From Nostoc sp. UHCC 0870 (GTDB lineage: Bacteria; Cyanobacteriota; Cyanobacteriia; Cyanobacteriales; Nostocaceae), in NCBI RefSeq assembly GCF_022063185.1, contig NZ_CP091916.1, positions 20,136 through 52,135 of the forward strand: a stretch of 32,000 bases of DNA, given 5' to 3'. Of the stretch, positions 1,328-26,543 are shown piece by piece. The notes under the pieces were generated by a model that saw only the letters and a program-made list of their open reading frames with translations, ran no database searches and was not told the DNA's origin. Position 1 is the first letter of the stretch. Each line of letters opens with the position of its first letter. A program made the position numbers and the translations under genes.

Positions 1328-1575
1328 AATCTTACATCCATGTATATTTTACTTTATCAAACGCTGCATATTTTTTATTGGGATAATTCAATTATGTTTG
1401 ATTGTTATAGTGTTTATTTGCAAATATTTTGGATGAAAATTTTAGGCTAATCTTCACTTATATACTTAGGCAATTAGCATAATTAAACAGCCATTGCTTA
1501 ATTTATAGTAAATCAGAAAATAACTTTATCTGTTGTCATCGTTCTTTACGCCAATCATCACAACAATCTTAAACT

Positions 1576-1603
1576 TTGACAACATTACCTAATTGCGTAT
1601 AAT
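1576..1603 (+). promoter_or_regulatory. near-consensus sigma70-type promoter for the hsdM operon
   Basis: TTGACA (1576-1581), a 16-nt spacer, then TATAAT (1598-1603). It lies in an AT-rich spacer about 40 nt upstream of the TTG at 1644. The -10 box overlaps the track start at 1593, which argues against that start. Confidence 0.6.
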
Positions 1604-1643
1604 CACAAAGCAGCAATTATATAGTAACTACTTATTTAAAACA

Positions 1644-3101: not shown

Positions 3102-3127
3102 AAGCAAACCCACAGTCATCAATTCTT

Positions 3128-3745
3128 ATGACCCAAGCCTTACCAAAAATAGTCACCTTTGAGGACTTTATCGCGTGGTATCCCGAAAACTCAGGGGTAC
3201 GCTACGAACTGCACAATGGGGAAATTGTCGAAATGGCACAGCCTACAGGGAAGCATGAAAGGATAAAAGGATTTTCGGCGGCTGAATTGACTGTAGAGTT
3301 TAGACGATTAAACCTCCCCTACTTTATCCCTAATCAAGCAATAGTAAGACCACCGGAAAGAGAATCAGGTTATTTCCCAGATGTATTAATCCTCAATGAT
3401 GCGGCTTTAGTTGATGAACCGCTTTGGGAAAAATCTTCTACTGTGACTAAGGGTACATCAATTCCTTTAGTTATTGAGGTTGTCAGTACCAATTGGCGCG
3501 ATGATTACTATCTGAAGCTGGCTGATTATGAGGAGATGGGTATTCCTGAATATTGGATTGTTGACTATGCAGCATTGGGAGCTAGAAAATTTATTGGTAA
3601 TCCCAAACAACCCACTTTTTCAGTCTATCAACTAATTGATGGGGAATACCAAGTGAGTCAGTTTCGGGGTAGCGATAAAATCATATCTCCTACTTTCCCT
3701 GAGTTAAATTTGACGGCAGAAAAAGTTTTTAAAGCTGGTCAATAA
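3128..3745 (+). CDS. Uma2-family (DUF820) putative endonuclease, second copy, inside the R-M operon
   Basis: Same motif layout as 713..1327 (VIEVVSTNWRDDYYLKLADYEEMGIPEYWIVDY). It starts 26 nt after the hsdM stop on the same strand. Confidence 0.85.
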   Translation: MTQALPKIVTFEDFIAWYPENSGVRYELHNGEIVEMAQPTGKHERIKGFSAAELTVEFRRLNLPYFIPNQAIVRPPERESGYFPDVLILNDAALVDEPLWEKSSTVTKGTSIPLVIEVVSTNWRDDYYLKLADYEEMGIPEYWIVDYAALGARKFIGNPKQPTFSVYQLIDGEYQVSQFRGSDKIISPTFPELNLTAEKVFKAGQ

Positions 3746-3784
3746 TTATTGGATGTACTCAATTATCAGAGGTAGGTAGTTAAA

Positions 3785-4000
3785 ATGAGTGATAAACAAT
3801 TGCTAGAGAGGATTAAATTCGACAAAAATATTTTAGCTGGTAAACCAATTATTCGAGGATTAAGAATACCAGTGTCAATGATTTTAGAATTACTAGCCAA
3901 GGGTGCTAATAATCAAGAAATTCTTGAAGATTACCCAGAATTAGAACTAGAAGATATACAAGCTGCGTTATTTTATGCTGATTATCTTGTTTCTCAATAA
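3785..4000 (+). CDS. DUF433-domain protein (antitoxin-like small helix-turn-helix protein)
   Basis: ILAGKPIIRGLRIPVSMILELLAKGANNQEILEDYPELELEDIQAALFYA matches the DUF433 pattern as I remember it. The size (71 aa) is typical. Confidence 0.75.
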   Translation: MSDKQLLERIKFDKNILAGKPIIRGLRIPVSMILELLAKGANNQEILEDYPELELEDIQAALFYADYLVSQ

Positions 4001-4135
4001 GTAGAGATGAAATAGAAAAAGAAATTGCTAGTCGTCGCGGGGGATTACAGGAAACTGACGCATGAAGATAACTTTTATTTTTGATTAATTTTTTATTGTC
4101 GATATTCTAGAGTAATGTCTAAAGGAGAAACAGAA

Positions 4136-4390
4136 ATGCACAGTATTAAATTATCAAAGCGTGTCGGGGCAGATGGGATTTTACATTTAGATATTCCAGT
4201 AGGGATAACGGATAAAGAAGTAGAAATCATGGTGATTTATCAACCGCTAGAAAAACCAAATCAGCTAAAAACACCAGAGGAATTAGGTTGGCCTCCTGGT
4301 TTTTTTGAGCAGACTTATGGTAGTTGTCAGGATGACCCCATTGTTATTGATTCTGAAGGTGATTTTGAAGAAAGGGAAGAAATTGTGTGA
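4136..4390 (+). CDS. antitoxin partner of VapC (family not recognised)
   Basis: Small acidic-tailed ORF whose TGA (4388-4390) overlaps the GTG start of the PIN gene (GTGA). AAGGAG at 4122-4127 sits 8 nt before ATG 4136, so that start is preferred. The track ORF starts at ATG 4115. Confidence 0.7.
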   Translation: MHSIKLSKRVGADGILHLDIPVGITDKEVEIMVIYQPLEKPNQLKTPEELGWPPGFFEQTYGSCQDDPIVIDSEGDFEEREEIV

Positions 4391-4794
4391 GATATTTGCT
4401 GGATACTAATGTTTGCGCTCGTTATCTCAATGGTAGGTCACTGGCAATTCGGGAGCGTTTACGAGCAACAAATATTGCAGATATTGCTGTGTGTTCTGTG
4501 GTCAAAGGCGAGTTATTTTATGGTGCAATAAAAAGCAATAATCCTGAGAAAACTTTATCTAGACAGCAAGAGTTTCTCAAGTTGTTTGTTTCGCTGCCCT
4601 TTGATGATTCTGCTGCCCTCGTTTACGGAAGAATCCGTGCAGAACTGTCAGCTAATGGGACTCCTATTGGCCCCAATGATTTCCAAATTGCAGCTATTGC
4701 AATAGCGAATAATTTAATATTGGTTACACATAATACGCGCGAATTTAGTCGAGTGAATGGATTGCAAATTCAAGATTGGGAGGAAGAAATTTGA
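4387..4794 (+). CDS. vapC: PIN-domain toxin, VapC family
   Basis: MRYLLDTNVCARYL N-terminus with the first acidic residue, later acidic and THN motifs (VTHNTREF), 135 aa. It has a 4-nt overlap with the upstream small ORF. Confidence 0.9.
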   Translation: MRYLLDTNVCARYLNGRSLAIRERLRATNIADIAVCSVVKGELFYGAIKSNNPEKTLSRQQEFLKLFVSLPFDDSAALVYGRIRAELSANGTPIGPNDFQIAAIAIANNLILVTHNTREFSRVNGLQIQDWEEEI

Positions 4795-6377
4795 TGGAAG
4801 ATAGAGATGATTTACTAGAACTTCCAAGCGGATGGACATGGACAATAGTTAGGGAAGTTATTGAAATTATCGATTATAGAGGTAGAACACCCCCTTTTAG
4901 TGCGGGTGGAATTGTTCATCTACGTTCATCTAATATTAAAAATTGTCAAGTTATTTGGGAAGATTTAAAGTATGTTTCCGAAGAAATATACAACCAATTT
5001 ATGACAAGAGGAATACCTCAAAAAGGAGATTTACTTTTAACGACTGAAGGTCCACTAGGAGAAGTAGCACTAGCTCCTGAGCAAAAATTTTCAGTTGCCC
5101 AGAGAATGATGATTTTAAGACCAGTTAAAGGTATATTGTTATCAGAATTTTTACTCTATCAAATAGCGGCACCCTGGTTTCAAACCAAATTAAAAGGAGA
5201 AGGAACAGGAACTACTGTTACAGGAATTTCTTCCAGAAATTTTCAACCTTTGGAAATTGTTGTATCTCCCCTCAACGAACAACGCCGGATAGTTGCGAAA
5301 ATAGAGGCGTTGAAGGCTAGGAGTCAGCGAGTGAAGGAGGAGCTTGAGGATATTCCTCAACTGCTAGACCAGTTCCGTCAATCTGTCCTCGCCGCCGCCT
5401 TTCGTGGCGACCTCACTGCTGATTGGCGGGAGCAGAACAGTAATGTTGAACCTGCTTCAGTGTTGTTGGACAGGATTTATGAAAAATATAATAATCAATA
5501 TCAGGAAGATTGTTCTAAAGCTAAAGCAACAGGAAATAGAAAACCCAAAAAACCTGATTGTTTAATTGAATATAACTTGGCTTGGGAAGAAGTGTTTAAA
5601 ATTCCACAAACTTGGCTAGTAAGACCATTAGGCAAAGTATGTACAAAAGTTACTGATGGCACTCATGACACACCCAAGACAGTTTCACAAGGAATTCCTT
5701 ATATTACTGCTCAACACATTAGAAATGGTTTTATAGATTTTGAAAATTGTTTCTTTATTCCTGAGAGTGAGCATAAAATTATATATTCACGGTGCAACCC
5801 AGAAAAAGGAGATGTAATCATAGTCAATATTGGTGCAGGAACTGCCACACCAGCCCTAGTTAATAGGGACTTTGAATTTAGCATGAAGAATATCGCTCTA
5901 TTGAAACCAATAACTGAAGTTGTAGATGGAAAGTATCTTGAGTATTACCAACTAGCAATCAAGCCAAATATTTTCTCACGAGTTTCCCGGGGTGGGGCGC
6001 AACCTTTTATGAGTTTAAATCTGATTAAAACAATTCCTTTTAAGCTTTCACCACTTTCTGAACAAAAGGAAATTGTCAAAAGAGTAGAATTATTGTTAAA
6101 CCTTGCTGATAATATTGAACAACAGTACCAAGAAGCCAAAGCTAACATAGACCAACTCGACCAATCAATCCTAGCCAAAGCCTTTCGCGGCGAACTCGTA
6201 CCCCAAGACCCCGACGACGAACCAGCATCCGTCCTGCTAGAACGCATCCGCGCAGAACGCGCCAAACTCCAAACCAAAACAGCCAAAAAATCCACCACCA
6301 AAAGCAGCGCACGACGTACCAAAAAACCCCAACCACAACAAGAAGAATCGGTGCAGCTAGACCTGGGGTTAGAGTAG
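4794..6377 (+). CDS. hsdS: type I restriction-modification specificity subunit S with two target-recognition domains
   Basis: Duplicated conserved helices LRQSVLAAAFRGDLT..EPASVLLDRI and LDQSILAKAFRGELV..EPASVLLERI separate two divergent TRDs. ATG 4794 overlaps the vapC TGA by 1 nt (TGATG). The track start at 4776 lies upstream in the same frame. Confidence 0.9.
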   Translation: MEDRDDLLELPSGWTWTIVREVIEIIDYRGRTPPFSAGGIVHLRSSNIKNCQVIWEDLKYVSEEIYNQFMTRGIPQKGDLLLTTEGPLGEVALAPEQKFSVAQRMMILRPVKGILLSEFLLYQIAAPWFQTKLKGEGTGTTVTGISSRNFQPLEIVVSPLNEQRRIVAKIEALKARSQRVKEELEDIPQLLDQFRQSVLAAAFRGDLTADWREQNSNVEPASVLLDRIYEKYNNQYQEDCSKAKATGNRKPKKPDCLIEYNLAWEEVFKIPQTWLVRPLGKVCTKVTDGTHDTPKTVSQGIPYITAQHIRNGFIDFENCFFIPESEHKIIYSRCNPEKGDVIIVNIGAGTATPALVNRDFEFSMKNIALLKPITEVVDGKYLEYYQLAIKPNIFSRVSRGGAQPFMSLNLIKTIPFKLSPLSEQKEIVKRVELLLNLADNIEQQYQEAKANIDQLDQSILAKAFRGELVPQDPDDEPASVLLERIRAERAKLQTKTAKKSTTKSSARRTKKPQPQQEESVQLDLGLE

Positions 6378-6518
6378 CGAAGACAAACTAGCGATCGCGC
6401 CAACTCAATAACTCATCCTCTCACCCAGAGCTTGACACCCTCTATTTATCGCACAAAAGTAGCCAGAGCAAGCATTTCGCCCTAAATCTCGGAATATCCC
6501 TGAATCCCTACCAAACCT

Positions 6519-6602
6519 CTAAAAAGCTAAAAAGCTAATTTTACAAAAAGCTAAAAAGCTAAATTTAGCTAAAGTCAAAAAGCTAAAAAGATAATTAGCT
6601 AA
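6519..6602. repeat. array of AAAAAGCTAA / AGCTAA repeats, candidate partition centromere or operator
   Basis: Five exact AAAAAGCTAA copies start at 6521, 6529, 6545, 6553 and 6577. Within 84 bp there are seven exact AGCTAA and one AGATAA. The array abuts the -35 box of the parA promoter. Confidence 0.6.
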
Positions 6603-6611
6603 ATTTATTAA

Positions 6612-6640
6612 TTGACAAATTAATCAAATGAGTTTAAGTT
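6612..6640 (+). promoter_or_regulatory. putative parA promoter
   Basis: TTGACA (6612-6617), a 17-nt spacer, then TAAGTT (6635-6640), 35 nt upstream of the parA ATG. Confidence 0.4.
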
Positions 6641-6674
6641 AATTGGCTAATTTAATAAATTACTAAAAATATAT

Positions 6675-7454
6675 ATGTTGACCATTACCGTAAGCTCCTT
6701 GAGTGGCGGACAGGGCAAGACGACGACCTCACTGTTCTTGGGGCGGCTGCTATCACGCCAGGGCTTGCCCACCTTGATGCTAGACTCCGACCCCCAACAT
6801 AATCTCACTACCTATCTGGGGTTTGAGTTAGAACCCAACCAACCAACCCTATTGGAATTTCTCAAAAAAACAGTTGCACCACAAGACTGCATTTACCCAA
6901 CACAAGACAACGACAACTTATTTCTCATCCCTGCCGATGACCAACTTGATACCGTACAAGATTATTTATCTAACAGTGGAGTGGGTGCAACCTTACTCAA
7001 ACGACGATTGGAAGCCATCAGCAAAATATTCAAAGTGTGCATTATAGATGCCCCACCCCAGCGATCGCAAATTTGTTTGACAGTCATCGGCGCAGCAGAT
7101 TTTTTGATTATCCCCGCCGAAGCATCAGTTAAAGGTTACGGTTCGCTAGTGCGGACACTGGACTTACTCAGTGGCTTGCAAGATGTCGGCGCAACGAATG
7201 CCCAAGTATTAGGTGTTTTACCCTTCCGCGATCGCTGGTTTGGTAACACCCAAGCCCAAGAAAGTCGGGCGGCTGTAGATGGAATGCGTGACGAAGTTGG
7301 CGAGGAGTTAGTTATACCCTCAATCCGCGAATCAGAACGCTATAAACAAGCCATCAACAAACGTACAACTTTGAGCGAGTTGGGATATACCGACTTGGAA
7401 TATCCATTTGAAATTTTAATTGAGAAAATTCAGGCTGCACTTGGGGGTAAATAA
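6675..7454 (+). CDS. parA: ParA/Soj-family partition ATPase
   Basis: Deviant Walker A SLSGGQGKTTT, Walker A' LMLDSDPQ and Walker B CIIDAPP. The size (259 aa) fits. Confidence 0.9.
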   Translation: MLTITVSSLSGGQGKTTTSLFLGRLLSRQGLPTLMLDSDPQHNLTTYLGFELEPNQPTLLEFLKKTVAPQDCIYPTQDNDNLFLIPADDQLDTVQDYLSNSGVGATLLKRRLEAISKIFKVCIIDAPPQRSQICLTVIGAADFLIIPAEASVKGYGSLVRTLDLLSGLQDVGATNAQVLGVLPFRDRWFGNTQAQESRAAVDGMRDEVGEELVIPSIRESERYKQAINKRTTLSELGYTDLEYPFEILIEKIQAALGGK

Positions 7455-8436: not shown

Positions 8437-9291
8437 TCAATTAACGGTCACATTATCAACTTTAGATTCAATCACTGACTGAATATTTGGGGAAACATTA
8501 GACAGGAAATCATAGCCTGTGAGTGTTTCTAATTCGTCAACACTGACTTTATAAGCCCTCCAATCGTTATTTAATTCTGGCTCGTTGGGAATATTCACTG
8601 CGATAACGCGAGTATTAGCTGTAATACCTTTAAGCCCTGAGCCTGGGCTATCTAATACAACAACTATCTTCCAAGTGGATTTGGGAACTGTCACTTTACC
8701 TTTGAGGGGTTCGCCAAGACTACCACTAGGCCCAGCGACAATATAAAGTTCTTTACCCTGGCTGACTAATTCTCGACAATAATCTTCTAAATTTCCCCAC
8801 GTATTTCTATTGTTATCGGGTGTCTGGGGCATCATGTTTGTCATCAGGAAAGTAGCTGCATTATCCTCTATTGTTCGGGTGCGGTCTGCTGAAGGTGCAA
8901 TATGACCTCTGTCATATCCACTTCCAGAGTACATAGAAGGAGTCACTCGCACCCAACCCGCAGGTAAGGTGTTGTCTGGGCGGAAGTTATCTTGACGCTC
9001 TGCATCTCCGAACCATGAGGAGTTAAGCTGCCAAGCTACCCAGTTGGCAGTTCCCTTGCTGTTGTTGTAGGAGAGTGCATATTGATTTTTGACCATCAGG
9101 TAATTATCAGGCGTAAGCTTTGTTGGCGTTGCACCACTGGGATTTCCCAGCAGTAAATGCACGCTTATTGATGGGGAAAGTTCAGTTAATGGTGGCACTT
9201 GGGACTGGGCTGGCGAACAACCGACAATCAACGCCACCAACGCCGCTACAGATACACCCCAATTTCGACAAATTCCCATAAATTGACGCAC
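8437..9291 (-). CDS. nucA: secreted sugar-non-specific DNA/RNA endonuclease NucA
   Basis: Active-site motif GYDRGHIAPSADR and downstream NMMPQ..N, as in Serratia/Anabaena-family nucleases. Signal or lipobox-like N-terminus VAALVALIVGCSP. An alternative start is Met5 at 9279. Confidence 0.9.
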   Translation of the reverse strand: MRQFMGICRNWGVSVAALVALIVGCSPAQSQVPPLTELSPSISVHLLLGNPSGATPTKLTPDNYLMVKNQYALSYNNSKGTANWVAWQLNSSWFGDAERQDNFRPDNTLPAGWVRVTPSMYSGSGYDRGHIAPSADRTRTIEDNAATFLMTNMMPQTPDNNRNTWGNLEDYCRELVSQGKELYIVAGPSGSLGEPLKGKVTVPKSTWKIVVVLDSPGSGLKGITANTRVIAVNIPNEPELNNDWRAYKVSVDELETLTGYDFLSNVSPNIQSVIESKVDNVTVN

Positions 9292-11866: not shown

Positions 11867-12889
11867 ATGCCTAATGAGCCGGTTTGGGGGGAATTGGTTA
11901 AAGTCGAGTTAGAAGCGTGTTTAAGTGCGCCGATAACTAGGTATTTTGACGCAGAGCTTCAGGGCGACCCGGATGTGTTGGCGCAGCTGTTGGCAGATAA
12001 ACGCAACCCCAATACTCGGCGTGCTTACGAGAAAGATTTGCGGGATTTCTTTATGAAGATGACTCTAATGCCGCCAAGTGGTGATAGCGTGCTGGAGTTT
12101 CTGCACTTGCAGCGAGAGCAAGCGGTGATGGTGGTGCTGAAGTACAAAGCGAAATTGATAGCTTCGGGGGTGCGGGAGGCCACAATTAATCGGCGGTTGG
12201 CGGCGATTAAGTCTTTGGCGAAGATGGGGCGCAAGCTGGGTGTGTGCAATTATTCCCTGGAAGATGTCGAGGGGGAGAAGGTCAAGGCTTATCGGGATAC
12301 GCGGGGGGTTGATAGCAAGACGATAGCACTTGTGTTACAGCAGTTTGACCGGGAGACTTTGATTGGTAAACGCAACTATGCAATCTTTCTGGTGCTGTGG
12401 GGTTTGGCTTTGCGTCGTCAGGAGATATGTCAGTTAAATGTGGGTGACTTTGATTTTTATGGGCGCAAGTTAAGGGTTTTGGGTAAGGGTAAGGGAACGA
12501 ATGAAGAATATTTAGATATGTCCAAGGATGTGGCGGCGGCTCTTGCAGATTGGTTAATTGCTAGGGGGGATTTGAATGTTAATTTACCAATTTTTACGGC
12601 GTTAGATTTTCATAATGAGGGGCATAGATTGACTGCGGATGCTATCTATAAAATTGTGTCGGCAGCTTTTAAGAAAGCGGGGGTGAAGAAACCGATGTCA
12701 CCGCACAGGGTGAGGCATTCGGCGATTACGGCGGCATTGGATGCGACGGATGGGAATATCAGAAAGGTGCAGAAGTTAAGTCGTCATGCTGACCCCAGAA
12801 CACTGATGATTTATGATGATAACCGCAATAAAGATTTGTGGGAAATGTCGGAGTTGTTAACGGGAATGTTGAAGGATTCGGGCGAATGA
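11867..12889 (+). CDS. tyrosine site-specific recombinase (XerC/D-like, probable plasmid resolvase/integrase)
   Basis: Catalytic signature in order: ALRRQEI (Arg I), LGKGKG (Lys), HRVRHSAIT (His-x-x-Arg), SRHADPRTLMIYD (His, Tyr). Confidence 0.9.
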   Translation: MPNEPVWGELVKVELEACLSAPITRYFDAELQGDPDVLAQLLADKRNPNTRRAYEKDLRDFFMKMTLMPPSGDSVLEFLHLQREQAVMVVLKYKAKLIASGVREATINRRLAAIKSLAKMGRKLGVCNYSLEDVEGEKVKAYRDTRGVDSKTIALVLQQFDRETLIGKRNYAIFLVLWGLALRRQEICQLNVGDFDFYGRKLRVLGKGKGTNEEYLDMSKDVAAALADWLIARGDLNVNLPIFTALDFHNEGHRLTADAIYKIVSAAFKKAGVKKPMSPHRVRHSAITAALDATDGNIRKVQKLSRHADPRTLMIYDDNRNKDLWEMSELLTGMLKDSGE

Positions 12890-12993: not shown

Positions 12994-14274
12994 ATGGAAA
13001 TTATAAATATTGTTTTAGAGAAAGTTAGTTTAATATGGCAATTGCTTGGTGAAAATAAAGAATCACTGCAAGGACTTGGAAGTATTTTAAATCCTTTGGC
13101 AATATTTACAGGTAGTGTGCTGATTCAGATTTGGCTCAATATACAAAATAAAGAAAAATTTAAGCAGGAGCAAAAAGCAGCAGATGATAGATATGAGAAA
13201 CAACAACAACTGACTGAAGAGATAGCCAAGCGTGACGAATATGCCGCTATCGAACGTCTCCGAAAAGAAACTTTGGACAGTTATCTTAATCGAATGACTT
13301 TACTTATAGAAAAGCGGTTTGGAGAGCAGAAGAATGTTGTAATTATAGACCAGATTGCCAGAGCTTTAACTATAGCCACTCTTAGAGAATTAGACTCAGA
13401 ACGAAATAAGCAAATAACAACATTTTTATATGAACTTAACTTAATTCAGAAAGTAGATAGTTTATTAAATACTAGAATACCTTTGTTGTATAAAGCTGAC
13501 TTGGAGAAAGCCAATCTTAGAGGAGCATTTTTAAAAGGAGCAGATTTGAGAGAAGCTAATCTTAAAGGAGCAGATTTGAGAGAAGCTAATTTAGAAAATG
13601 CTTGTTTGGAAGATGCTAACTTAGAGGGTGCATTTTTTGAACAAGCCAACCTGAAAGGCGCAATTTTAAGTGGGGCAACATTAAATTTAGCTAAACTATC
13701 AAATGCAATTTTGAATAACGCAAATCTTGAGAAAGCTAGCCTACGCGGAGCCGATTTATCTAATTCTAGTCTTCATGGTACTAATCTCAAAGAAGCTCAA
13801 ATGAGAGGATGTGATCTATTTCAAGCTGAAATAGTTAATGCAATATTAACGAATGCTGATTTACGTAGAGCCAAATTAATTAACACAACACTAAGTAACT
13901 CAGATTTGAGCAATACATTTTTTAAATGGGCTGATTTTAGTCTCTCCAAACTAACTAATGTCAATCTTCAAAGTGCTTATTTAAGGCTGATTGTCTTTAG
14001 AGATCAAGTTGAGATACCTGCTGAAAAAGGCTCAATTAAACTTAGGAAAGGTTGTTCAATGACGCTGGCGACAGGTACAAAGCTGATTAGTGGAAAAGCT
14101 GAACTAGAAAAAGTAGACTTGAGAGAAGCAACTTTAGATTCAGCCGATTTTAGTGGAGCTATCTTTAAAGAAGTTGATTTGAGAGGAGCAAAATATAAAG
14201 AAGAGTCTAGCAAGCCCGTTTTTTCTGAGGGGTTTGATGAATCTCAAATAAGTAATATAGTAACAGAAGAATAA
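12994..14274 (+). CDS. pentapeptide-repeat protein with an N-terminal membrane helix and coiled coil
   Basis: Long run of A(D/N)Lxx pentapeptides (ANLRGAFLKGADLREANLKGADLREANLENACLEDANLEGA...). Hydrophobic segment LNPLAIFTGSVLIQIWL near the N-terminus. Confidence 0.9.
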   Translation: MEIINIVLEKVSLIWQLLGENKESLQGLGSILNPLAIFTGSVLIQIWLNIQNKEKFKQEQKAADDRYEKQQQLTEEIAKRDEYAAIERLRKETLDSYLNRMTLLIEKRFGEQKNVVIIDQIARALTIATLRELDSERNKQITTFLYELNLIQKVDSLLNTRIPLLYKADLEKANLRGAFLKGADLREANLKGADLREANLENACLEDANLEGAFFEQANLKGAILSGATLNLAKLSNAILNNANLEKASLRGADLSNSSLHGTNLKEAQMRGCDLFQAEIVNAILTNADLRRAKLINTTLSNSDLSNTFFKWADFSLSKLTNVNLQSAYLRLIVFRDQVEIPAEKGSIKLRKGCSMTLATGTKLISGKAELEKVDLREATLDSADFSGAIFKEVDLRGAKYKEESSKPVFSEGFDESQISNIVTEE

Positions 14275-18445: not shown

Positions 18446-21178
18446 GTGCATACTACACAGACAACTACAACACAGACTGCTAACAGACTGACTGACAGAC
18501 ATTATAAAGAGTGCGTCACCAACCGGGGCTTGTGTCCAGAATGGATAGCTGTTAACTGTCGCTCAATGGACACCAAAGAAGCGAGCCAACGCTTAGGATA
18601 CACAGCAAAATCAGCAGGCATCTGGCTAGAAGGAGTCGACGGTTTTGGGCAGTATCGCCCTAACAAGCCCTGGAAAAGCGTAGACGAGAAGAAAGCACCC
18701 AAGTATCGGACAGCGACCAAAGAAGAATATGACGCAATGCTACCCCGTCATCCTCATAATCCGGGCTACTGGCAGGATTATGAGGCACTTAAACCACTTT
18801 GCTATCAGATCAACGGTCATCCTTGCTTAGTTGTAACTGAGGGATTATTTAAGGCGATCGCCGGCTGTTTTCACGGATTCCCTACAGTTGCGCTCGCTGG
18901 AGTGGAACAGGGCTTAACACCGACGGCTAGCGACCCCCAAGGCAAACGTTACCTAGTCGATACCCTAGAATTATTAGCCCGTGCTAAGTTTGGATGGATT
19001 ATTGCTTTTGACGCAGACGAATGCGCCCAAACTAATAAAAATGTGGTGGCAGCACAAAGAAAACTAGCTCATCAATTAGCTAAGTTTAAAGTACCTGTGT
19101 ACATTGCCACGGGCTTATGGAGTGCAGCAGAAGGTAAGGGGATGGACGATTACATTCAGGCCAACGGCGACGACGCTTTTAGAGACAAAGTGTTAGCTAA
19201 GGCTGTTAATTTTGAAATTTGGGAACGCCAGTTCAAAGAAGACGATGCTGATAACAAAACTTTGTCAGAATCCGCTTTTGCGGCACAAATCGCCGAAGAT
19301 TACCGTGCCAAGCTAGCTTGGCACGTAGCCAACAAAGCTTGGTACTGGTATGAAGCAGAAAATAAGTGCGGGGTCTGGAGTGAAATTCCCTCTGAAGAGG
19401 CGATGTCAATTGTTTTAACAGAACTGGAAACGCGGACACGCCATTTCTCCAGCAGGTTTGTCAACGGTGTTTTGACTTTACTCAAGGCCAAACTCAGGGT
19501 TAATCACTGGGAAGTCCGCAAAGGTTTTATTTGTCTTCAGGATTGTGTGCTGGATGTGAATACCCTCAAAGAATATCCACATGAGCCGGGATACAGAATG
19601 CTGAGTCAGCTACCTTTTAAATGGGCTGACCGCAGTGTAGGTTGTGAGCCTGTGAAGGAATGGTTGCTGGAAGCTTGCGAAGGTAAAGCCGACTGGGTGG
19701 AAGTTATTCGCGCTGGGATTAATGCGACCGTCACCGAACGCGGCGGCGAGTTACAAAGATTTATGGAGCTAGTGGGTGCTGGCGGTACTGGCAAAGGTAC
19801 TTTATTGCGGCTGGTGCAAGCACTACTGGGCAGAGAAAACTACGCCATCACCGAACTGAAGCAGTTGGAGCAAAACCGCTTTGAAACTGCGGCTCTCTAC
19901 GGCAAGAAAGCTGTGTTTATCACTGACTCTGAACGCTACACAGGTGATGTTAGCACTCTCAAGAAATTGACAGGTGATGATGAGCTGCGACACGAGAAAA
20001 AAGGCATTCAGCAAACAGGCAGTTTTAGATTTAGTGGGGTGGTCTGGATTGCTGCCAACGAAATCATTCAAAGCAGTGATTACACTAACGCCCTGTCCCG
20101 TCGTCGTCTCTCCATGCCTTTTGAGCGGGTGGTGCCACAAAATGAGCGTCGCCCCTTAGAAAAGGAATTTCAGCCATACTTGCCTGGGGTATTGCAATGG
20201 GTTTTAGAGATGTCGGCTTTGGATGTCGCTGCTTATGTCGGTGACACTAACAAACTAGTGCCTTCACTTGGCTCGTTTAGCACAGAGGTACTGTTAAGCA
20301 CTAACCCTCTGGCTGATTGGGCTAATGACCGTCTTTACTATGACCCGAAAGCACAAACGCAAATCGGTGATAACGGTCAAAGTGCTGAATTGTTCCTCTA
20401 TCCTAACTACTGCGAATGGGCGCAGCGTAATTCTCACGGCATTATGACTAAGCAACGATTCTCAGCCATTTTGCTGAATCTGCTGAATTCTCAACTCAAC
20501 ATTAATGCTGCAAAAGTGAGAAACAAGAAAGGACGTTTTATCACTAAAATTGCTATTCGCCAGTCAGGACAAGACTTTCCGCTCTTAATCTCGGAAAAAG
20601 ATGCTGACCTTGATGCTGACTTTCATAAAAGTCATGCTAACCCGGTGCTGACTTCTATGCTAACTGAAAGTATTGATAGTGCTGACTTTCAGAATGGTGC
20701 TGACCTTTTGGCTGATAGTAACGCATCTGACACCACCAACCAACACTACTTGATGAACACTACTAGCAGTCAAAATCAGGAGGATAAGTCAGCACAGTCA
20801 GCACAGTCAGCACTACCAAGGGTTTCAGCCAGCACTACTGACAGCACTACCGATATCACCACACAAAAACAAGTCAGCACCAAACAACGAATGATTGAGA
20901 CTTGGGAGAACAAGTCAGCCTTGGGTGAAATCGTTCTAAATCTTGATAGTGCTGAATTACAGCAAATTGCTAAAGGTTTCAGTCCTGAACAAGTGCAATA
21001 TATCAAGGACGCAGCTAATAGCGTGTGGCAGTTAGGTGCAAATTCATTGGCTGATTACAACGGCGAACTAGTCTACATTTGGGAGTGCGGACAATCAAAC
21101 GATGTTCGCATTGGTACTAAGACTCAGGCTGGCGCAAAAGTTAGACGCGCTCATCTGCGTCCTTGGTTAGGCATTTGA
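18446..21178 (+). CDS. plasmid replication primase-helicase (DUF3854/Toprim-like N-domain plus P4/D5-type NTPase; CyRepA-like)
   Basis: Toprim-like CLVVTEGLFKA and IIAFDADE. Walker A VGAGGTGKGT, Walker B AVFITDSE, then the WIAANE motif. GTG start 18446 with GGAG 9 nt upstream. Low-complexity linker near residue 720-800. Confidence 0.88.
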   Translation: MHTTQTTTTQTANRLTDRHYKECVTNRGLCPEWIAVNCRSMDTKEASQRLGYTAKSAGIWLEGVDGFGQYRPNKPWKSVDEKKAPKYRTATKEEYDAMLPRHPHNPGYWQDYEALKPLCYQINGHPCLVVTEGLFKAIAGCFHGFPTVALAGVEQGLTPTASDPQGKRYLVDTLELLARAKFGWIIAFDADECAQTNKNVVAAQRKLAHQLAKFKVPVYIATGLWSAAEGKGMDDYIQANGDDAFRDKVLAKAVNFEIWERQFKEDDADNKTLSESAFAAQIAEDYRAKLAWHVANKAWYWYEAENKCGVWSEIPSEEAMSIVLTELETRTRHFSSRFVNGVLTLLKAKLRVNHWEVRKGFICLQDCVLDVNTLKEYPHEPGYRMLSQLPFKWADRSVGCEPVKEWLLEACEGKADWVEVIRAGINATVTERGGELQRFMELVGAGGTGKGTLLRLVQALLGRENYAITELKQLEQNRFETAALYGKKAVFITDSERYTGDVSTLKKLTGDDELRHEKKGIQQTGSFRFSGVVWIAANEIIQSSDYTNALSRRRLSMPFERVVPQNERRPLEKEFQPYLPGVLQWVLEMSALDVAAYVGDTNKLVPSLGSFSTEVLLSTNPLADWANDRLYYDPKAQTQIGDNGQSAELFLYPNYCEWAQRNSHGIMTKQRFSAILLNLLNSQLNINAAKVRNKKGRFITKIAIRQSGQDFPLLISEKDADLDADFHKSHANPVLTSMLTESIDSADFQNGADLLADSNASDTTNQHYLMNTTSSQNQEDKSAQSAQSALPRVSASTTDSTTDITTQKQVSTKQRMIETWENKSALGEIVLNLDSAELQQIAKGFSPEQVQYIKDAANSVWQLGANSLADYNGELVYIWECGQSNDVRIGTKTQAGAKVRRAHLRPWLGI

Positions 21179-21392: not shown

Positions 21393-21579
21393 GCGCCAAA
21401 CAGATGAATGAAGCCATTCGAGATTGAGGCTTGGATTACACGAAATGGCTCGAACGTGTAATGCTGCATCACTCAAAGATCGAAACTTAAGCTATAAACT
21501 TTTTATCTCAATTACGTAATTCAGAACATAAACCATGTGGTATATAAGTAATTAAAATGCCAAGCTTACGAGGTAGTAC

Positions 21580-21978
21580 ATGGAGCCACTAACTGCTGGG
21601 GCGATCGCCTTTCTATATCTGCTAATGGATAAAACACTAGATAAAACAGGCGATGCTATTATAAACCAAGCTTTTGAACAAGGCGGTAAGTTGCTGCAAC
21701 TGCTGAAGCGTAAGTCACCAGAAACTGGAAGTGCTATAGAACGGGTTGCACAACATCCAGAATTAGCCCAAAAGCAGCCAGATGATTATGGTGAAGCAGT
21801 TTTGGTGGAGAAGGTAAAGAAAGAAGCTTATGCAGATCCAGAAATTAGAGCATACGTGGAAGCTTTGGCACAAACGGTAAAGTCCCAGCCGCAAATTAAT
21901 AAAGTGATTGAGAATTGGAAAGGAATAAATATTAAAGGTGGAACTAATACTTTTACTGATACTACCTTCAATTTTTGA
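21580..21978 (+). CDS. 132-aa helical N-terminal module of the STAND/NLR-like locus, ending at an in-frame TGA
   Basis: ATG start, hydrophobic N-terminal helix LTAGAIAFLYLLM and a G/N/T-rich tail. It is in the same frame as the NB-ARC ORF. Confidence 0.6.
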   Translation: MEPLTAGAIAFLYLLMDKTLDKTGDAIINQAFEQGGKLLQLLKRKSPETGSAIERVAQHPELAQKQPDDYGEAVLVEKVKKEAYADPEIRAYVEALAQTVKSQPQINKVIENWKGINIKGGTNTFTDTTFNF

Positions 21979-22092
21979 CTACAGTCGCCCGAATGGAAAC
22001 GGGTAAAATTAAATCCCCCAAATAATATTCCGTTTCAAGGTTCTGCCAACTTTGTTGGAAGGCAGCATGAACTGACTATACTGCGTGAAAAG

Positions 22093-24033
22093 TTGCAAAA
22101 ACCAGGCGTTTTTGCCATCTCTGCTGTCGCTGGTATGGGTGGAGTTGGTAAAACCGAACTGGCGATTAAATACGCCTGGGAACATGAAGCGGATTACCCT
22201 GGTGGTATCTGCTGGTTATCAGCAAGAGAATCAAAAGAATCAAATTTGGCTGTGGAGATTGTGCATTTTGCCCAGCTTTACATGAAACTAAAGGTTCCTC
22301 AGAATAATTTGCAGGGAAAGCTGCTGAACCCCACCGAACAAGTAGCTTGGTGTTGGCAAAACTGGAAACCACTAGAAGGGCTGGTATTGGTTATCTTAGA
22401 TGATGTTACGAATCTGGAGACTTGCCGAGAGTTTCTACCAAAAGGCAAGCGTTTCTGTGTGTTAATGACAACACGGTTACGAAACCTAGACACCAACATT
22501 CAGGAGATACCCTTAGATGTACTATCACCTCAAGAGGCTTTGGAATTATTAACAGCCTTGGTAGGCGAAAAGCTGATACAAAAGGAACTCCAAACAGCAA
22601 AAGAGTTGTGTGAATGGTTCGGATATTTACCTTTGGGGTTGGAGTTGATAGGGCGGTATTTGGCTAAAAAACCTCCTCATTGGACTTTAGCAAAGATGTT
22701 GCAACGGCTAGAAGAGCAAAGGCTGGAAGACGAAGCCATCAATCACTGTCAGCAACAAACTCTGAGTACAGCACAACGAGGTGTTCTAGCAGCATTTGAA
22801 TTAAGTTGGCTGGAACTTAACCCAATGACACAGCTTGTTGGTAAATTATTAAGCTTATTTGCACCGGATATCTTTCGTTGGGAATGGGTAGAGTCTGCAT
22901 CTAGCTTACTCAATTTGAGTTCAACTGAAATTGAAACAGCAAACCAGCAACTTTACGATCGCCATTTGATTGTGTGGGTGGAAGATAAAGATACAGATGT
23001 TTGCTATAAAATTCATCCTTTGATTCGGAAGTTTTTGAAAGTCAAGCTAGATGCAGACTTTGAACAAGCTGACGCTTTGAAGCAACAGTTTTGCCGGGTA
23101 ATGGTAAACGATTCAAAGCTAGTTCCCCAGTCTCCTACTCAGGATGTTACCTTAAGGGTTAATACTGCTGTACCTCATATAGTTGAAGCCGCCACAAGAT
23201 TAAATGAGTGGTTAAAAGATGAAGATTTTTGTTATCCTTTTGTAGCTTTAGGCAGATTCTATGCAGATCAAGGTATTTACCACAAAGCAGAATATTGGTA
23301 CAAACAGTACCTATCCGTTTCTCAAACTCGCTTTGGAGAAGAGCATATAGAAGTAGCTTGTAGCTTGAATAATTTGGCTCTTCTCTATTGTAAGCAGGGA
23401 CGCTACATCGATGCTCAACCCCTTTTTCAAAGAGCTTTAGAATTAAATGAACGTCTTTCTAAAGAAATGTATCCTTATGTAGCGACGACACTAAACAACT
23501 TAGGTTTATTATATTGTGAACAGGGTCGTCCTTTTGAAGCAGAACCTCTATTTCAAAAAGCTTTGGCAATTAGAGAAGAGAGTCTAGGGAAAGACCATCC
23601 TGAGATCGCAACTATCCTAAATAATCTGGCTTATTTCTATTTTTCTCTAGATGAATATAATAAGGCTAAAAAGCTATTAGAGAAGGCTTTAAAAATTAGA
23701 GAAAAAAGCATAGAAAGAAATCCTGTAGCTTTAGCAATTATCTTGAATAATTTGGCTCATATTTATGAATATCAAGAGCGCTATATGAAAGCTAAAGATT
23801 TATATAACGAAGCGTTAGAAATAAGAACAAGCTTCTTAGGAGATAAGCATTTAGATGTTGCTCAAAGCTTAAATAATCTGGGTGTGGTTCATGCTAAACA
23901 AAAACGATATGAAGAAGCTAAATTCCTTTTGAAACAAGCATTAGAAATTTTTGATAAATGTGTAGGAGATAGACACCGTTATACGGTGTCTACTCGCGCT
24001 AGTCTAAGCAATATTTGTGATGACCAAAGTTAA
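22093..24033 (+). CDS. NB-ARC (STAND P-loop NTPase) plus TPR-repeat protein, NLR-like; conserved sequence extends upstream to 21979
   Basis: Walker A GMGGVGKTELA, Walker B LVILDDV, then repeated TPR units (LNNLALLYCKQGRY..A.PLFQRAL, LNNLGLLYCEQGR, LNNLAYFY, LNNLAHIY, LNNLGVVH). The track start is TTG 22093, which would cut off the conserved FVGRQHEL segment. Confidence 0.8.
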   Translation: MQKPGVFAISAVAGMGGVGKTELAIKYAWEHEADYPGGICWLSARESKESNLAVEIVHFAQLYMKLKVPQNNLQGKLLNPTEQVAWCWQNWKPLEGLVLVILDDVTNLETCREFLPKGKRFCVLMTTRLRNLDTNIQEIPLDVLSPQEALELLTALVGEKLIQKELQTAKELCEWFGYLPLGLELIGRYLAKKPPHWTLAKMLQRLEEQRLEDEAINHCQQQTLSTAQRGVLAAFELSWLELNPMTQLVGKLLSLFAPDIFRWEWVESASSLLNLSSTEIETANQQLYDRHLIVWVEDKDTDVCYKIHPLIRKFLKVKLDADFEQADALKQQFCRVMVNDSKLVPQSPTQDVTLRVNTAVPHIVEAATRLNEWLKDEDFCYPFVALGRFYADQGIYHKAEYWYKQYLSVSQTRFGEEHIEVACSLNNLALLYCKQGRYIDAQPLFQRALELNERLSKEMYPYVATTLNNLGLLYCEQGRPFEAEPLFQKALAIREESLGKDHPEIATILNNLAYFYFSLDEYNKAKKLLEKALKIREKSIERNPVALAIILNNLAHIYEYQERYMKAKDLYNEALEIRTSFLGDKHLDVAQSLNNLGVVHAKQKRYEEAKFLLKQALEIFDKCVGDRHRYTVSTRASLSNICDDQS

Positions 24034-25908
24034 CTATTCTTTTCCTCCTTCTATAAGTAAAAACATTCTCTTTAATTGGCGACGCTTCTCGTCTATCTTC
24101 CATCTTTTTATTTTTTTAACCATCAAACAAGAAAATGTGGATACTACAGTTATGATGACAACGATAATCCAGTCGTGCGAATTAGTCTTTAAACTCTTTT
24201 TTAAATCAGTCTCTAACTCAACCAGTTTTGAATGATGTTCTCCTTGAGCTTCTTGTGCATAAAATGACAGAAATCTTAAACGGTCTCTTTGTTTTACTGG
24301 CTCTTTAAGTTGGATACCTACAAGATATGCAAACCGTCCGTGTAACCAAGCTAAATCTCTTGTTTGCATATATCCAGTCAATCCCGCTCGAAACGCTTCT
24401 GCTTCCGATCTAAGCAAATCTTGTTCAGGGCAGTTTCCTAACTTTTCTATACAACTTTGTAGGTATTTGTCCACCTCATCGTAAGCGTCCATACGCGCTT
24501 GATTCATTAAAGATGGAAGATTTTGGATAGAACGCTCTAGCTGACTATTTCCAGGAACATATCTCCAATCCGTATATTTTGCTACATAATCTCCCATCTT
24601 TAAAACTTGAATGCGGTCTCTAGGATTGTTAGCAGAAAGTTCGATTGCTTGATTTAACTTTTGTTCTGCAAGCGCTTTCTTTCCATCCCAGGTATAGATA
24701 ACTGCTAATGCTGCTTGCAATAGAGGGTCATTGGGAACTGTATAATTAAGGAACTGCTTTGCTGTCAAACCTTTTAGCTGTTCTACTTGGTTTGGATCTT
24801 CATATGCCCCTGATATAGCTTTTTGTAAAACATTGTAAGCAGTAGCCCATGCTTGGGGAGTATTAGCAGGCTGGAAGACTGAAAGGTTCAGTCTTTCCCA
24901 TTCCTTGTTAAGTTCCTTTCTACTAGCGGAAATTTCCTTCCACCAGTTTAAAATATCTGTCTTGCCTCTTTGTTGGTCATTTGTTTTGGATTCAGAAGTT
25001 TCATTGCTTATAGAAGCTACCTGAGAATAGAGATCTTCACAACTATCTGGTTTTTTACAAGCTGCTTCCAAAAGTCCCAAAGTTGCTGTTATTGAAGCAG
25101 CACGATCCAACTCCGGCAAAATGGTACGGTAGACAAGAGGACGGTCTTTTATATCCTTGATGAGCGGTAAATAAGGACGTTCCCCTAGAGATTGAGTTTC
25201 GTTATCTACCTCCAATGGAAGACCAAAAGGAGCGCGAAATAAGACTTGAGGTTTAAACTCTAGGCTTACTAATCCTTGCACTTTAGGATCGAAATACAAG
25301 TATATCTGCGGCCAGCTTGCAGGAACACTTTCCCATTGAGTGGCTAGTTTGCGATATTCAGCATCGGTCTTTAGTAATCGCAGAGCTTCTTTGTAGAAAT
25401 ATATTGGTCTTGGCTCAGGAAGTGGCACGTCAGCAAAAACAATTTCATTAGCGAACTTTATATCTGCATCATAAAGCTGATCTCCAATAAGCGTATCTCG
25501 CAACGTCTGATCAATATATCTATTATCTCTCTCCTTACTCGATACGGCTCTTTCATCTTGCGATACTTGAAAAACAAGGTTGTCGGCCTTTTCCACAATT
25601 CCAATGGCTTCCTGCACTATATCGGGACTGACTTTGACCGTTCGCTGTTCACCTTCAATCTTGACATGAAGATGCCCACCACTATAGGATATCGAGGATG
25701 ATTCTAAAAAAAGAGTACCGGATTTATTGATGTCAGCCTGTAATCCACCAATTCCAGATGAGCGTGCTGCCAAGATGGGTCTTGTGTAGGGTGACATTGC
25801 TCTCCAACTTCCTTCATCATACCAAGGATTCGAGAGTGTTTTTTGAGGGATAAGCGTACTCGCTATTAAAACAAAAGCTATCAGTCCATGAAATATATAA
25901 CGTTTCAT
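24034..25908 (-). CDS. hypothetical exported protein (624 aa) with a signal peptide and a C-terminal membrane anchor
   Basis: N-terminus MKRYIFHGLIAFVLIASTLIP and C-terminus DWIIVVIITVVSTFSCLMVKK. Its stop abuts the stop of the convergent NB-ARC gene. No family recognised. Confidence 0.7.
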   Translation of the reverse strand: MKRYIFHGLIAFVLIASTLIPQKTLSNPWYDEGSWRAMSPYTRPILAARSSGIGGLQADINKSGTLFLESSSISYSGGHLHVKIEGEQRTVKVSPDIVQEAIGIVEKADNLVFQVSQDERAVSSKERDNRYIDQTLRDTLIGDQLYDADIKFANEIVFADVPLPEPRPIYFYKEALRLLKTDAEYRKLATQWESVPASWPQIYLYFDPKVQGLVSLEFKPQVLFRAPFGLPLEVDNETQSLGERPYLPLIKDIKDRPLVYRTILPELDRAASITATLGLLEAACKKPDSCEDLYSQVASISNETSESKTNDQQRGKTDILNWWKEISASRKELNKEWERLNLSVFQPANTPQAWATAYNVLQKAISGAYEDPNQVEQLKGLTAKQFLNYTVPNDPLLQAALAVIYTWDGKKALAEQKLNQAIELSANNPRDRIQVLKMGDYVAKYTDWRYVPGNSQLERSIQNLPSLMNQARMDAYDEVDKYLQSCIEKLGNCPEQDLLRSEAEAFRAGLTGYMQTRDLAWLHGRFAYLVGIQLKEPVKQRDRLRFLSFYAQEAQGEHHSKLVELETDLKKSLKTNSHDWIIVVIITVVSTFSCLMVKKIKRWKIDEKRRQLKRMFLLIEGGKE

Positions 25909-26136: not shown

Positions 26137-26307
26137 CTACGAACCGCCAATTCCAGATGAGCGTGCTGCCAAGATGGGTTTTGTGTAAGGTGACATTGCT
26201 CTCCAACTTCCTTCATCATACGAAGGATTCGAGAGTGTTTTTTGAGGGATAAGTGTACTTGTTATAAAAATAAAAGCTATCAGCCTATGAGATAGAAAAC
26301 GGCTCAT
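26137..26307 (-). pseudogene. truncated duplicate of the 5' end of the 624-aa gene (56 codons then TAG)
   Basis: 26147-26307 aligns with 25748-25908; about 96 percent identical over the first ~105 nt and lower near the ATG. It encodes MSRFLSHRLIAFIFITSTLIPQKTLSNPSYDEGSWRAMSPYTKPILAARSSGIGGS. Confidence 0.7.
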
Positions 26308-26543
26308 ATACACCTACTATTTATTAGGGGACTGGGACTAACAGAGAACAGCCCATTAAGTTCAACGCTTTAGGATAAAAGCTACTAGACAAAATTTAGA
26401 AGCTGCACAATATTTTAAATCATATCTTGCGCCATTATTCAGTCAGAAGGAGAACCTGTATATTCTCCTTACCAAACTAAGCCTGGTAACGAAGTCTTTG
26501 AAGGTAGAGCTTCGCAACATTTGAAATTGGTGCAAGACGTGAA

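Follow-up and report, generated by a model that had tools for sequence, protein, structure and literature searches.

Why should a coding sequence on a bacterial plasmid be divided by a single stop codon that leaves the reading frame open on both sides? The question is raised by a locus of Nostoc sp. UHCC 0870, located in a stretch of 32,000 nucleotides (the window) that is part of a 55,139-bp plasmid. A 132-codon open reading frame (ORF) opens at ATG 21580, 6 nt behind a Shine-Dalgarno-like GAGG recognised in the sequence (21570–21573), and closes at a TGA at 21976–21978, with C21979 as the next base. Past the TGA the same frame is open for 684 codons, down to a stop at 24031–24033, and encodes an NLR-like sensor with NB-ARC and tetratricopeptide repeat (TPR) domains; all features of the locus lie on the + strand. 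The peptide behind the TGA opens LQSPEWKRVKLNPPNNIPFQGSANFVGRQHEL and later contains the GMGGVGKTELA of a P-loop. Its earliest in-frame ATG, GTG or TTG is TTG 22093, at codon 39, and the earliest in-frame ATG, at 22135, falls within the P-loop GMGGVGKT. The first-pass annotation of this DNA had reported that the two ORFs share a frame and are split by this TGA only, and that no ATG or GTG precedes the P-loop Met, with TTG 22093 as the first possible start; the sequence bears out both statements. It left three explanations standing: a recent nonsense pseudogene, a sequencing error and programmed read-through. At a single locus, a shared frame with 38 stop-free codons is by our own estimate mildly unlikely to arise by chance (p about 0.05), and the comparative sequence data put the shared frame far beyond chance. 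They lead us to regard programmed UGA read-through, which would yield mostly free effector and a minority of effector–sensor fusion, as the probable explanation. We also find good reason to think that the locus is a Bell/BASS7–NLR amyloid-signalling cell-death system (BASS, bacterial amyloid signalling sequence) in which effector and sensor form one recoded gene.

The comparison covered 33 loci from genomes, 17 from metagenomes and a handful found by exact look-up. It yielded 24 distinct junctions in which a small ORF ends with TGA and the same frame stays open over a further 100 to >1200 codons. The junctions represent more than 20 cyanobacterial lineages, among them Nostoc, Iningainema, Dendronalium, Calothrix, Microseira, Microcoleus, Lyngbya, Coleofasciculus and several metagenome-assembled genomes, and their effector modules are 36–92% identical to that of UHCC 0870. 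The stop is TGA in 24 of 24 junctions, never a sense codon, and the base at +4 is C in 23 of them, which makes the in-frame TGA with its C (21976–21979) the proposed read-through site. Elsewhere in this DNA, 26.5% of 117 other long ORFs end with TGA and 3.4% with TGA-C; the weak TGA-C context highlighted in the first-pass annotation is a kept property of the junction. UGA followed by C is reportedly the weakest terminator in E. coli (Poole et al. 1995). The residue past the stop is Leu in 23 junctions, with a CTN codon in 23 of 23, compared with 47% CTN and 53% TTA or TTG for Leu elsewhere. Selection therefore acts on the base C and not on leucine. The closest relative, from Iningainema tapete (L001/L004, 92% identity), keeps both TGA-C and the nucleotide element described below.

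The sequences joined at the junction are diverse. Upstream tails of the TGA-type loci fall in several motif classes, and the partners behind the TGA are NB-ARC–TPR proteins, NB-ARC proteins with other repeats, nSTAND3/5/6 NTPases, an unknown P-loop protein, CHASE2, GUN4 and transmembrane proteins. The junction leads into a GUN4-domain protein in L030 (4439–5521) and into a CHASE2-domain protein in L036 (4490–5788). Counted as raw loci with redundancy included, about 30 of about 50 sampled loci of this Bell subfamily are of the TGA type, which is the commonest and majority architecture in the sample. Two divergent metagenomic Bell homologs, L049 (749 onwards) and L050 (737 onwards), have an in-frame TGA followed by 142–148 more codons; their post-stop sequence differs (LTSF.GSLTW.EEKS), no domain was recognised in it, and they may represent a second junction type.

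Selection seems to favour termination at the TGA, too. Searching 5.8 billion proteins returned 206 effector homologs, of which the best 120 are all free-standing proteins of 100–165 aa from filamentous cyanobacteria; none of these 120 extends beyond the stop, and no Bell–NB-ARC fusion with a sense codon at the junction is among them. A profile search of 1.84 billion representatives gave 305 hits, and the best 150 of these contain no such fusion either. A chimeric query across the junction returned two fragments only, and with its word index carries little information on sense-codon fusions, for which the profile search is the better guide. Because one point mutation would suffice to make such a fusion and none was found, termination seems to be maintained along with continuation. 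The uninterrupted effector–NOD–repeats ORF of an all-in-one Bell–NLR protein is likewise not what UHCC 0870 has, as the TGA at 21976 breaks it. Fusions do exist for non-NLR partners: P0218 is an uninterrupted Bell–N/G-rich–transmembrane–GUN4 protein. The junction motif was not found in IMG/VR viral contigs.

The nucleotides that follow the stop are constrained beyond what the peptide would require. The junction consensus reads TGA CTA CAG TCG CCC GAA CGG GAA CGG GTA AAG TTA AAT CCC CCA, with third positions conserved. Several codons are nearly fixed, among them Ser TCG (17/17, background 9%), Pro CCC (20/22, background 20%), Arg CGG (20/21, background 17%) and Val GTA (17/17, background 28%), and codon 6 stays NGG while its residue varies among R, G and W. 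The proportion of synonymous differences (pS), averaged over 55 pairs of 11 diverse loci, is 0.18–0.20 in codons +1 to +10, 0.33 in codons +11 to +14 and 0.68–0.83 further on. In UHCC 0870 the constrained element, delimited by synonymous-site constraint, codon fixation and RNAalifold and containing a hairpin and a C-run, extends over 21979–22020. RNAalifold predicts a hairpin of 5 bp after an 8-nt spacer behind the TGA, with arms GCCCG (21987–21991) and CGGGT (22000–22004) and the loop at 21992–21999. Across the alignment 96.7% of the cells are paired, compensatory changes occur at 3 of 5 pairs, and the covariation score was reached by no shuffle. The arms are GUCCU/AGGAC in L024 and GUCUG/CGGAC in L034; since pairing is kept there while the peptide changes, the constraint appears to act on RNA rather than on peptide. 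The C-run at 22015–22019 could pair with the loop Gs in a pseudoknot (87.5% paired, weakly supported). A search of Rfam gave no match around the junction, selenocysteine insertion sequence (SECIS) elements included.

Beyond this element, constraint shifts to the protein level. The linker LQSPEWKRVKLNPPNNIPFQGSANFVGRQHEL runs from the TGA to the Pfam NB-ARC match (21979–22074) and contains no start codon; coding selection and comparison define it. In codons 15–50 past the TGA, the proportion of nonsynonymous differences (pN) is 0.12–0.44 against a pS of 0.63–1.0, saturated, in pairs of loci. By this measure codons 15–50 are under purifying, protein-level selection. In L022, L046 and L047 no ATG, GTG or TTG occurs before the Met within the P-loop. 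Judged from these sequences the start-less linker is translated, because pN is well below pS and several loci have no usable start upstream. The conserved FVGR motif lies at codon 25 past the TGA. The NB-ARC NTPase domain (22075–22752; Pfam PF00931, E 4.4e-14, residues 33–258 after the stop) begins at residue 33, upstream of TTG 22093, and has its P-loop GMGGVGKT at 22132–22155. It is followed by TPR sensor repeats at residues ~399–662 after the stop (23173–23964; Pfam TPR_12, E 1.9e-58, TPR_10, E 2.1e-51, and TPR_MalT). The small ORF thus has a collinear NB-ARC/TPR partner directly downstream on the same strand, as Bell/BASS–NLR pairs do. We found no Shine-Dalgarno-like motif ahead of TTG 22093, CTG 22081 or ATG 22135 and no terminator-like site between the effector and sensor parts, and promoter-like matches at the locus are no more frequent than expected by chance.

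The identity of the small protein follows from its relatives. It has 132 aa, begins MEPLTAGAIAFLYLL and, as far as homology tells, is a Bell-domain effector with a C-terminal BASS7 motif. We make this assignment because the motif is shared with the adjacent NLR in relatives, because the pair OYE01691.1/OYE01692.1 is listed under BASS7 in Table S2 of Dyrka et al. 2020 (bioRxiv 10.1101/2020.01.06.895854), and because of homology to L017. The L017 protein is 48% identical to the effector over residues 1–132 (tblastn, E 2e-32), and the L017 strain and motif fit OYE01691.1, a Bell/BASS7 protein of that table. Alignment, homology and an AlphaFold2 (AF2) model assign residues 1–108 (21580–21903) to a Bell-like helical effector domain with a hydrophobic N-terminal helix and Glu at position 2. 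Residues 109–132 (21904–21975) carry the BASS7-type amyloid-signalling motif VIENWKGINIKGGTNTFTDTTFNF, which resembles bass_07 entries of Table S2 such as TTVIENWQGINIKGGKPIIKNNTLNF. The size, an acidic residue at position 2 or 3 and a G/N/Q-rich C-terminal motif of ~25 residues are as in other Bell effectors, which have about 120–140 aa; their Bell domain is described as a helical bundle in which helix 1 is cupped by further helices. In the family alignment E2 is nearly invariant among 24 homologs, T5, A6, G7 and A8 are invariant or nearly so, and the general pattern is an N-terminal MEP, a conserved helical body of ~105 residues and a variable tail rich in G, N, Q and I.

The AF2 model, of moderate confidence (predicted local distance difference test, pLDDT, 65; predicted template modelling score, pTM, 0.57), is all-helical, with helices at 2–16, 26–45, 47–58, 72–85, 87–102 and 104–115; residues 115–132 of the tail are disordered, with pLDDT below 50. 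Foldseek found nothing significant for this model in the PDB, the best hit being the Rx coiled-coil domain (E 0.58), and a profile search of PDB sequences with the effector family returned no match. No family for the 132-aa module was found in Pfam, NCBIfam or PADLOC, an exact-sequence look-up of the protein found no contig on record, and megablast of the locus against PLSDB plasmids gave no match. The first-pass guess of a Bell/HeLo-like module has held: homology to OYE01691.1 supports a Bell domain with a BASS7 tail, and Foldseek provides no fold-level link to HeLo, MLKL or Babybell. For this locus, an amyloid or prion nature of the motif is putative, as is toxicity of the Bell domain towards membranes, by analogy with related systems.

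Bacterial amyloid signalling sequences are defined by a motif that recurs at the effector C-terminus and at the N-terminus of the neighbouring NLR, and the relatives of the UHCC 0870 locus with two genes have such a motif. In these loci (L002, L007, L015–18, L020, L027–29, L032, L038 and L059) the sensor starts at an ATG of its own and carries a separate BASS7 copy. In L002 (Lyngbya aestuarii) the effector ends ENWKGINIKGGTNTINNPNLNF-TAA and, 5 bases on, an NB-ARC/TPR gene opens MDTQENWQGINTKGDTIINNPQMN, repeating the tail motif; in 12 further two-gene loci the effector ends NFGSK-TGA, the genes overlap by ATGA, and the sensor starts M-T-N-ENWQGINIKGG. The paired motif at the sensor N-terminus was seen in L002, L007, L016–18 and L038. 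Past the TGA no second motif copy was found in the UHCC 0870 locus or in any TGA-type locus, and the paired signature is missing there. Compared with their two-gene relatives, TGA-type sensors lack exactly the start codon and the motif copy. The NPPxNIP..FVGR stretch that follows the hairpin also occurs in two-gene relatives, in the linker behind the sensor-side BASS7 copy. The two architectures are interleaved on the Bell-domain tree, which suggests that they are functionally interchangeable. The first-pass annotation had named two separate genes in the homologs as an observation that would speak against its reading. Such genes are found in a minority only, and since the sensors there have their own start and motif, the contrast supports read-through in the TGA type.

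A conserved TGA, the TGA-C context, constraint over 40 nt and coding selection behind the stop together constitute, at the level of sequence comparison, the standard comparative signature of programmed read-through: a conserved in-frame stop in a leaky context, 3' synonymous constraint or RNA structure, and coding selection in a downstream region without a start. We propose that ribosomes start at ATG 21580 and that most would terminate at UGA 21976, freeing the 132-aa Bell–BASS7 effector. A minority would pass the UGA and produce a Bell–BASS7–linker–NB-ARC–TPR protein (21580–24033), predicted by translation to have 817 residues including one inserted at the TGA. Passage would be favoured by the weak UGA-C context and by the conserved RNA element from 9 nt downstream, with near-cognate tRNA-Trp as the likeliest UGA decoder. 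Read-through would supply the sensor with its motif from a single copy, the motifs of both partners would be identical, and the effector would be in excess. We infer the read-through, its efficiency and the inserted residue from sequence comparison. On a trigger, the TPR/NB-ARC sensor would oligomerise and gather its N-terminal BASS7 segments; these could nucleate an amyloid fold and template the surplus free effector, which would then damage the membrane and kill the cell. Oligomerisation, amyloid nucleation, templating and membrane killing are modelled on HET-S/NWD2 and on what Dyrka et al. 2020 and the 2024 Bab preprint describe for BASS systems.

Several observations weigh against programmed read-through. 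At only 5 bp the hairpin is small, shuffled sequences fold just as well (z −0.4 to +1.1), and its covariation is carried by few divergent sequences. Because the single-sequence z-scores are not significant, the argument for RNA structure is one of conservation and a few compensatory changes. We know of no established case of structure-stimulated read-through on bacterial ribosomes. In the Microcoleus class, codon 11 is a GTG that stands behind GGGGAA and may act as an independent start. Some copies are decaying, with the post-stop frame ending after 99 codons in L004, 37 in L014 and 63 in L046, and L054–56 combine a TGA-G junction with a TAG within the NB-ARC domain. The two-gene sensor of L038 carries the junction element without a stop, which shows that the element is not confined to the TGA type.

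The L038 sensor (3359–5695) begins MTDENWQGINLKGG and continues INF-I-SSERERVKSNPP. Its element, TCG TCC GAA CGG GAA CGG GTA AAG TCA AAT CCT CCA, stands behind the motif of the sensor itself; ATT takes the place of the TGA CTA CAG found in the other loci. L038 could represent an intermediate stage of evolution; alternatively, the element could be a relic or serve some second function there. In L054 (387–608; also in L055 and L056) the junction reads TGA GTG GAG CCG CCC GAA CGG, and gene callers begin a 72-aa ORF at the GTG. The TAG replaces the Tyr of ADYPGG in three independent assemblies, and the copy is decaying. In L001 (about 5397–7041) the NB-ARC ORF ends after 99 codons; behind it come a GUN4 gene and one for a protein longer than 1300 aa, in which VWA and Band_7 are weakly matched. 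On the upstream side, L001/L004 has genes for a relaxase and a type IV coupling protein.

Among the alternatives, two proteins could be made without recoding if the sensor started independently, either by termination-reinitiation on the CTA or CTG that follows the stop, or from CTG 22081 or TTG 22093 as weak internal starts, the 40 nt then serving as a coupling or re-initiation signal. We regard this as unlikely. CTG does follow the TGA in 10 of 24 junctions, and GTG follows it in L054; the NCBI pipeline, PGAP, uses that CTG in L058 and CTG 22081 in UHCC 0870; the GTG of the Microcoleus class stands behind a purine-rich stretch; and the element of L038 does without the stop. However, half of the junctions have CTA, which to our knowledge is not a bacterial start codon, and the candidate starts have no Shine-Dalgarno-like sequence. 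Selection falls on the C at +4 and not on a start codon, and initiation at 22081 or 22093 would cut the conserved FVGR segment off the NB-ARC domain. Moreover, a sensor started independently would lack the BASS motif that all two-gene relatives retain, and would be unable to signal to the effector.

The junction could also be mainly a DNA-level recombination site for module swaps, with the TGA merely ending the effector and the downstream modules expressed only after rearrangement. One sequence of ~40 nt does link many upstream motifs to many downstream domains, the architectures are interleaved on the tree, several genomes have more than one locus, and the element recurs in L038. This explanation leaves the constant TGA-C, the kept frame and the selection on a start-less linker unaccounted for; the compensatory changes indicate RNA structure, and no recombinase is consistently linked to the loci. 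We consider it improbable as an account in its own right. Recombination at a conserved recoding signal would give the same pattern, and the idea is in that form compatible with read-through rather than an alternative to it.

Lower still is the probability we assign to a TGA that encodes selenocysteine or is read by a dedicated UGA-decoding tRNA, with the hairpin acting like a SECIS element. The hairpin behind the in-frame UGA has its loop Gs ~16–19 nt from the stop, a distance within the range of bacterial SECIS models. On the other hand, the site is in an inter-domain linker without a redox centre, no homolog has Cys at this position (L038 has Ile), and Rfam shows no SECIS match. ARAGORN found no tRNA gene, suppressor tRNA or tRNA-Sec in the window or in the 24 loci, and the free effector, present in every relative, would be lost if decoding were complete. 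The selenocysteine trait was not detected in Cyanobacteria by Zhang et al. 2006 (PMC1794560).

A recent nonsense pseudogene or an assembly error on this plasmid is excluded as an account of the architecture, taking two of the three first-pass explanations with it and leaving read-through as the one that the comparative signature favours: related copies in L004, L014, L046 and L054 are indeed decaying, but the position and context of the TGA are identical in 24 distinct loci from many genera and independent assemblies, the downstream ORFs are intact and under selection, and no sense-codon version appears in the best-hit lists. Two further candidates were rejected: transcriptional slippage at the T-run before the TGA, as the run is not conserved, and a start at the TTG overlapping the stop (TTTTGA), which is out of frame and whose preceding codon varies.

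If programmed read-through does operate, one may speculate that it is regulated and forms part of the sensing. Through the conserved 3' RNA element, synthesis of the fusion would then follow the state of translation termination, as altered by phage suppressor tRNAs, recoded phages, depletion of release factor 2 (RF2) or stress, and more UGA decoding would raise the dose of fusion and arm or trigger death. The junction would be the first dedicated cis read-through signal known for bacterial ribosomes and a portable adaptor of one amyloid-effector module to NB-ARC, nSTAND, CHASE2, GUN4 and transmembrane sensors. We put this forward as a doubtful proposal, with odds well against it.

Current database entries do not reflect the arrangement. 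The effector is labelled 'hypothetical protein' (UKP01310.1) and the sensor 'tetratricopeptide repeat protein', the latter with two annotated starts (22081–22095), CTG 22081 in RefSeq (650 aa) and, four codons downstream, TTG 22093 in GenBank (646 aa). Both lie within NB-ARC and have no Shine-Dalgarno-like sequence, and we judge them to be annotation expedients. In L058 the NCBI pipeline starts the sensor (3412–5049, 544 aa) at the CTG right behind the TGA. Annotation of the TGA-type sensor family is inconsistent, and with pipelines starting sensors at an arbitrary CTG or TTG in the NTPase domain, the databases contain N-terminally truncated versions.

Directly upstream of the Bell gene lies a 910-aa gene with DUF3854, D5_N and P4-type primase domains (18446–21178, +). 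In L060 (1–2637) a DUF3854 protein and a DnaB-like helicase are encoded upstream of a TGA-type Bell gene, which has a transmembrane protein as its partner behind the junction. It seems that effector and junction move together with a plasmid replication module and that the sensor is what gets exchanged. On the other side, a 624-aa protein of unknown function with a signal-peptide-like start is encoded at 24034–25908 (−), its gene convergent with the TPR gene and abutting its stop. A 58-aa ORF at 26137–26313 (−) is 80% identical to the N-terminus of this protein and looks like a partial duplication or gene fragment. A type I restriction-modification system occupies 713–6377 (HsdM 1593–3101, HsdS 4776–6377), with two Uma2-family endonuclease genes amid its genes at 713–1327 (−) and 3128–3745 (+). 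Further along are ParA (6675–7454), a non-specific endonuclease (8437–9291), a tyrosine integrase (11867–12889) and a pentapeptide-repeat protein (12994–14274). The plasmid that carries the Bell/NLR locus is thus rich in defence and mobility genes.

As a kind of system, the Bell/BASS–NLR arrangement is already known; what is new is the expression logic, in which the sensor would be a read-through extension of the effector. The locus resembles the Bell/BASS7–NLR pairs of Nostocales (Dyrka et al. 2020) in its homologous effector module, the C-terminal ENW[KQ]GINIKGG..NTFNF, the collinear NB-ARC/TPR partner and the NPPxNIP..FVGR linker. It differs from them in that their sensors have their own ATG, often in an ATGA overlap, and a motif copy, whereas here a conserved TGA-C is followed by a constrained 3' element. 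The remaining C-terminal motifs seen in TGA-type loci are all absent from the table of Dyrka et al. 2020, and screens for paired motifs would miss TGA-type loci. The TGA type may account for some of the Bell proteins whose C-terminal motifs lack a partner on an annotated NLR. The Bab or 'Babybell' BASS11 system of enterobacteria (bioRxiv 10.1101/2024.11.07.622273) likewise combines a Bell-type helical effector with an amyloid motif and acts in abortive infection. It has another motif family and other hosts, read-through is unreported for it, and our effector has no sequence or structure match to solved structures. Neither of the two BASS papers (Dyrka et al. 2020; bioRxiv 10.1101/2024.11.07.622273) mentions read-through or stop codons, and full-text literature searches returned no report of an effector–sensor stop-codon arrangement.

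In HET-S/NWD2 of Podospora anserina the amyloid motif of an NLR templates a helical pore-forming effector bearing the same motif, and the predicted read-through product has the same domain order as the all-in-one HeLo/Bell–NLR proteins (Dyrka et al. 2020). Unlike either of these, one coding sequence would here serve both partners, with the stop codon setting their ratio. Known Bell/BASS–NLR systems are two genes that keep matched motifs or uninterrupted fusions; in the TGA type a leaky stop would fix the proportion of effector to sensor. Programmed read-through is familiar from viruses, in the coat/A1 proteins of phage Qbeta (UGA), nsP3/nsP4 of alphaviruses (UGA-C) and gag-pol of murine leukaemia virus (MuLV), where a pseudoknot follows an 8-nt spacer. 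The cyanobacterial junction shares with these a leaky stop between an abundant short and a rare long product, a UGA followed by C, and a predicted RNA structure about 8 nt on. It differs in belonging to a bacterial cellular or plasmid family, in having a 5-bp hairpin with weak support for a pseudoknot, and in being known so far from sequence. Conserved read-through directed by a signal, here a defined element of 40 nt, would be a rarity among cellular gene families of bacteria.

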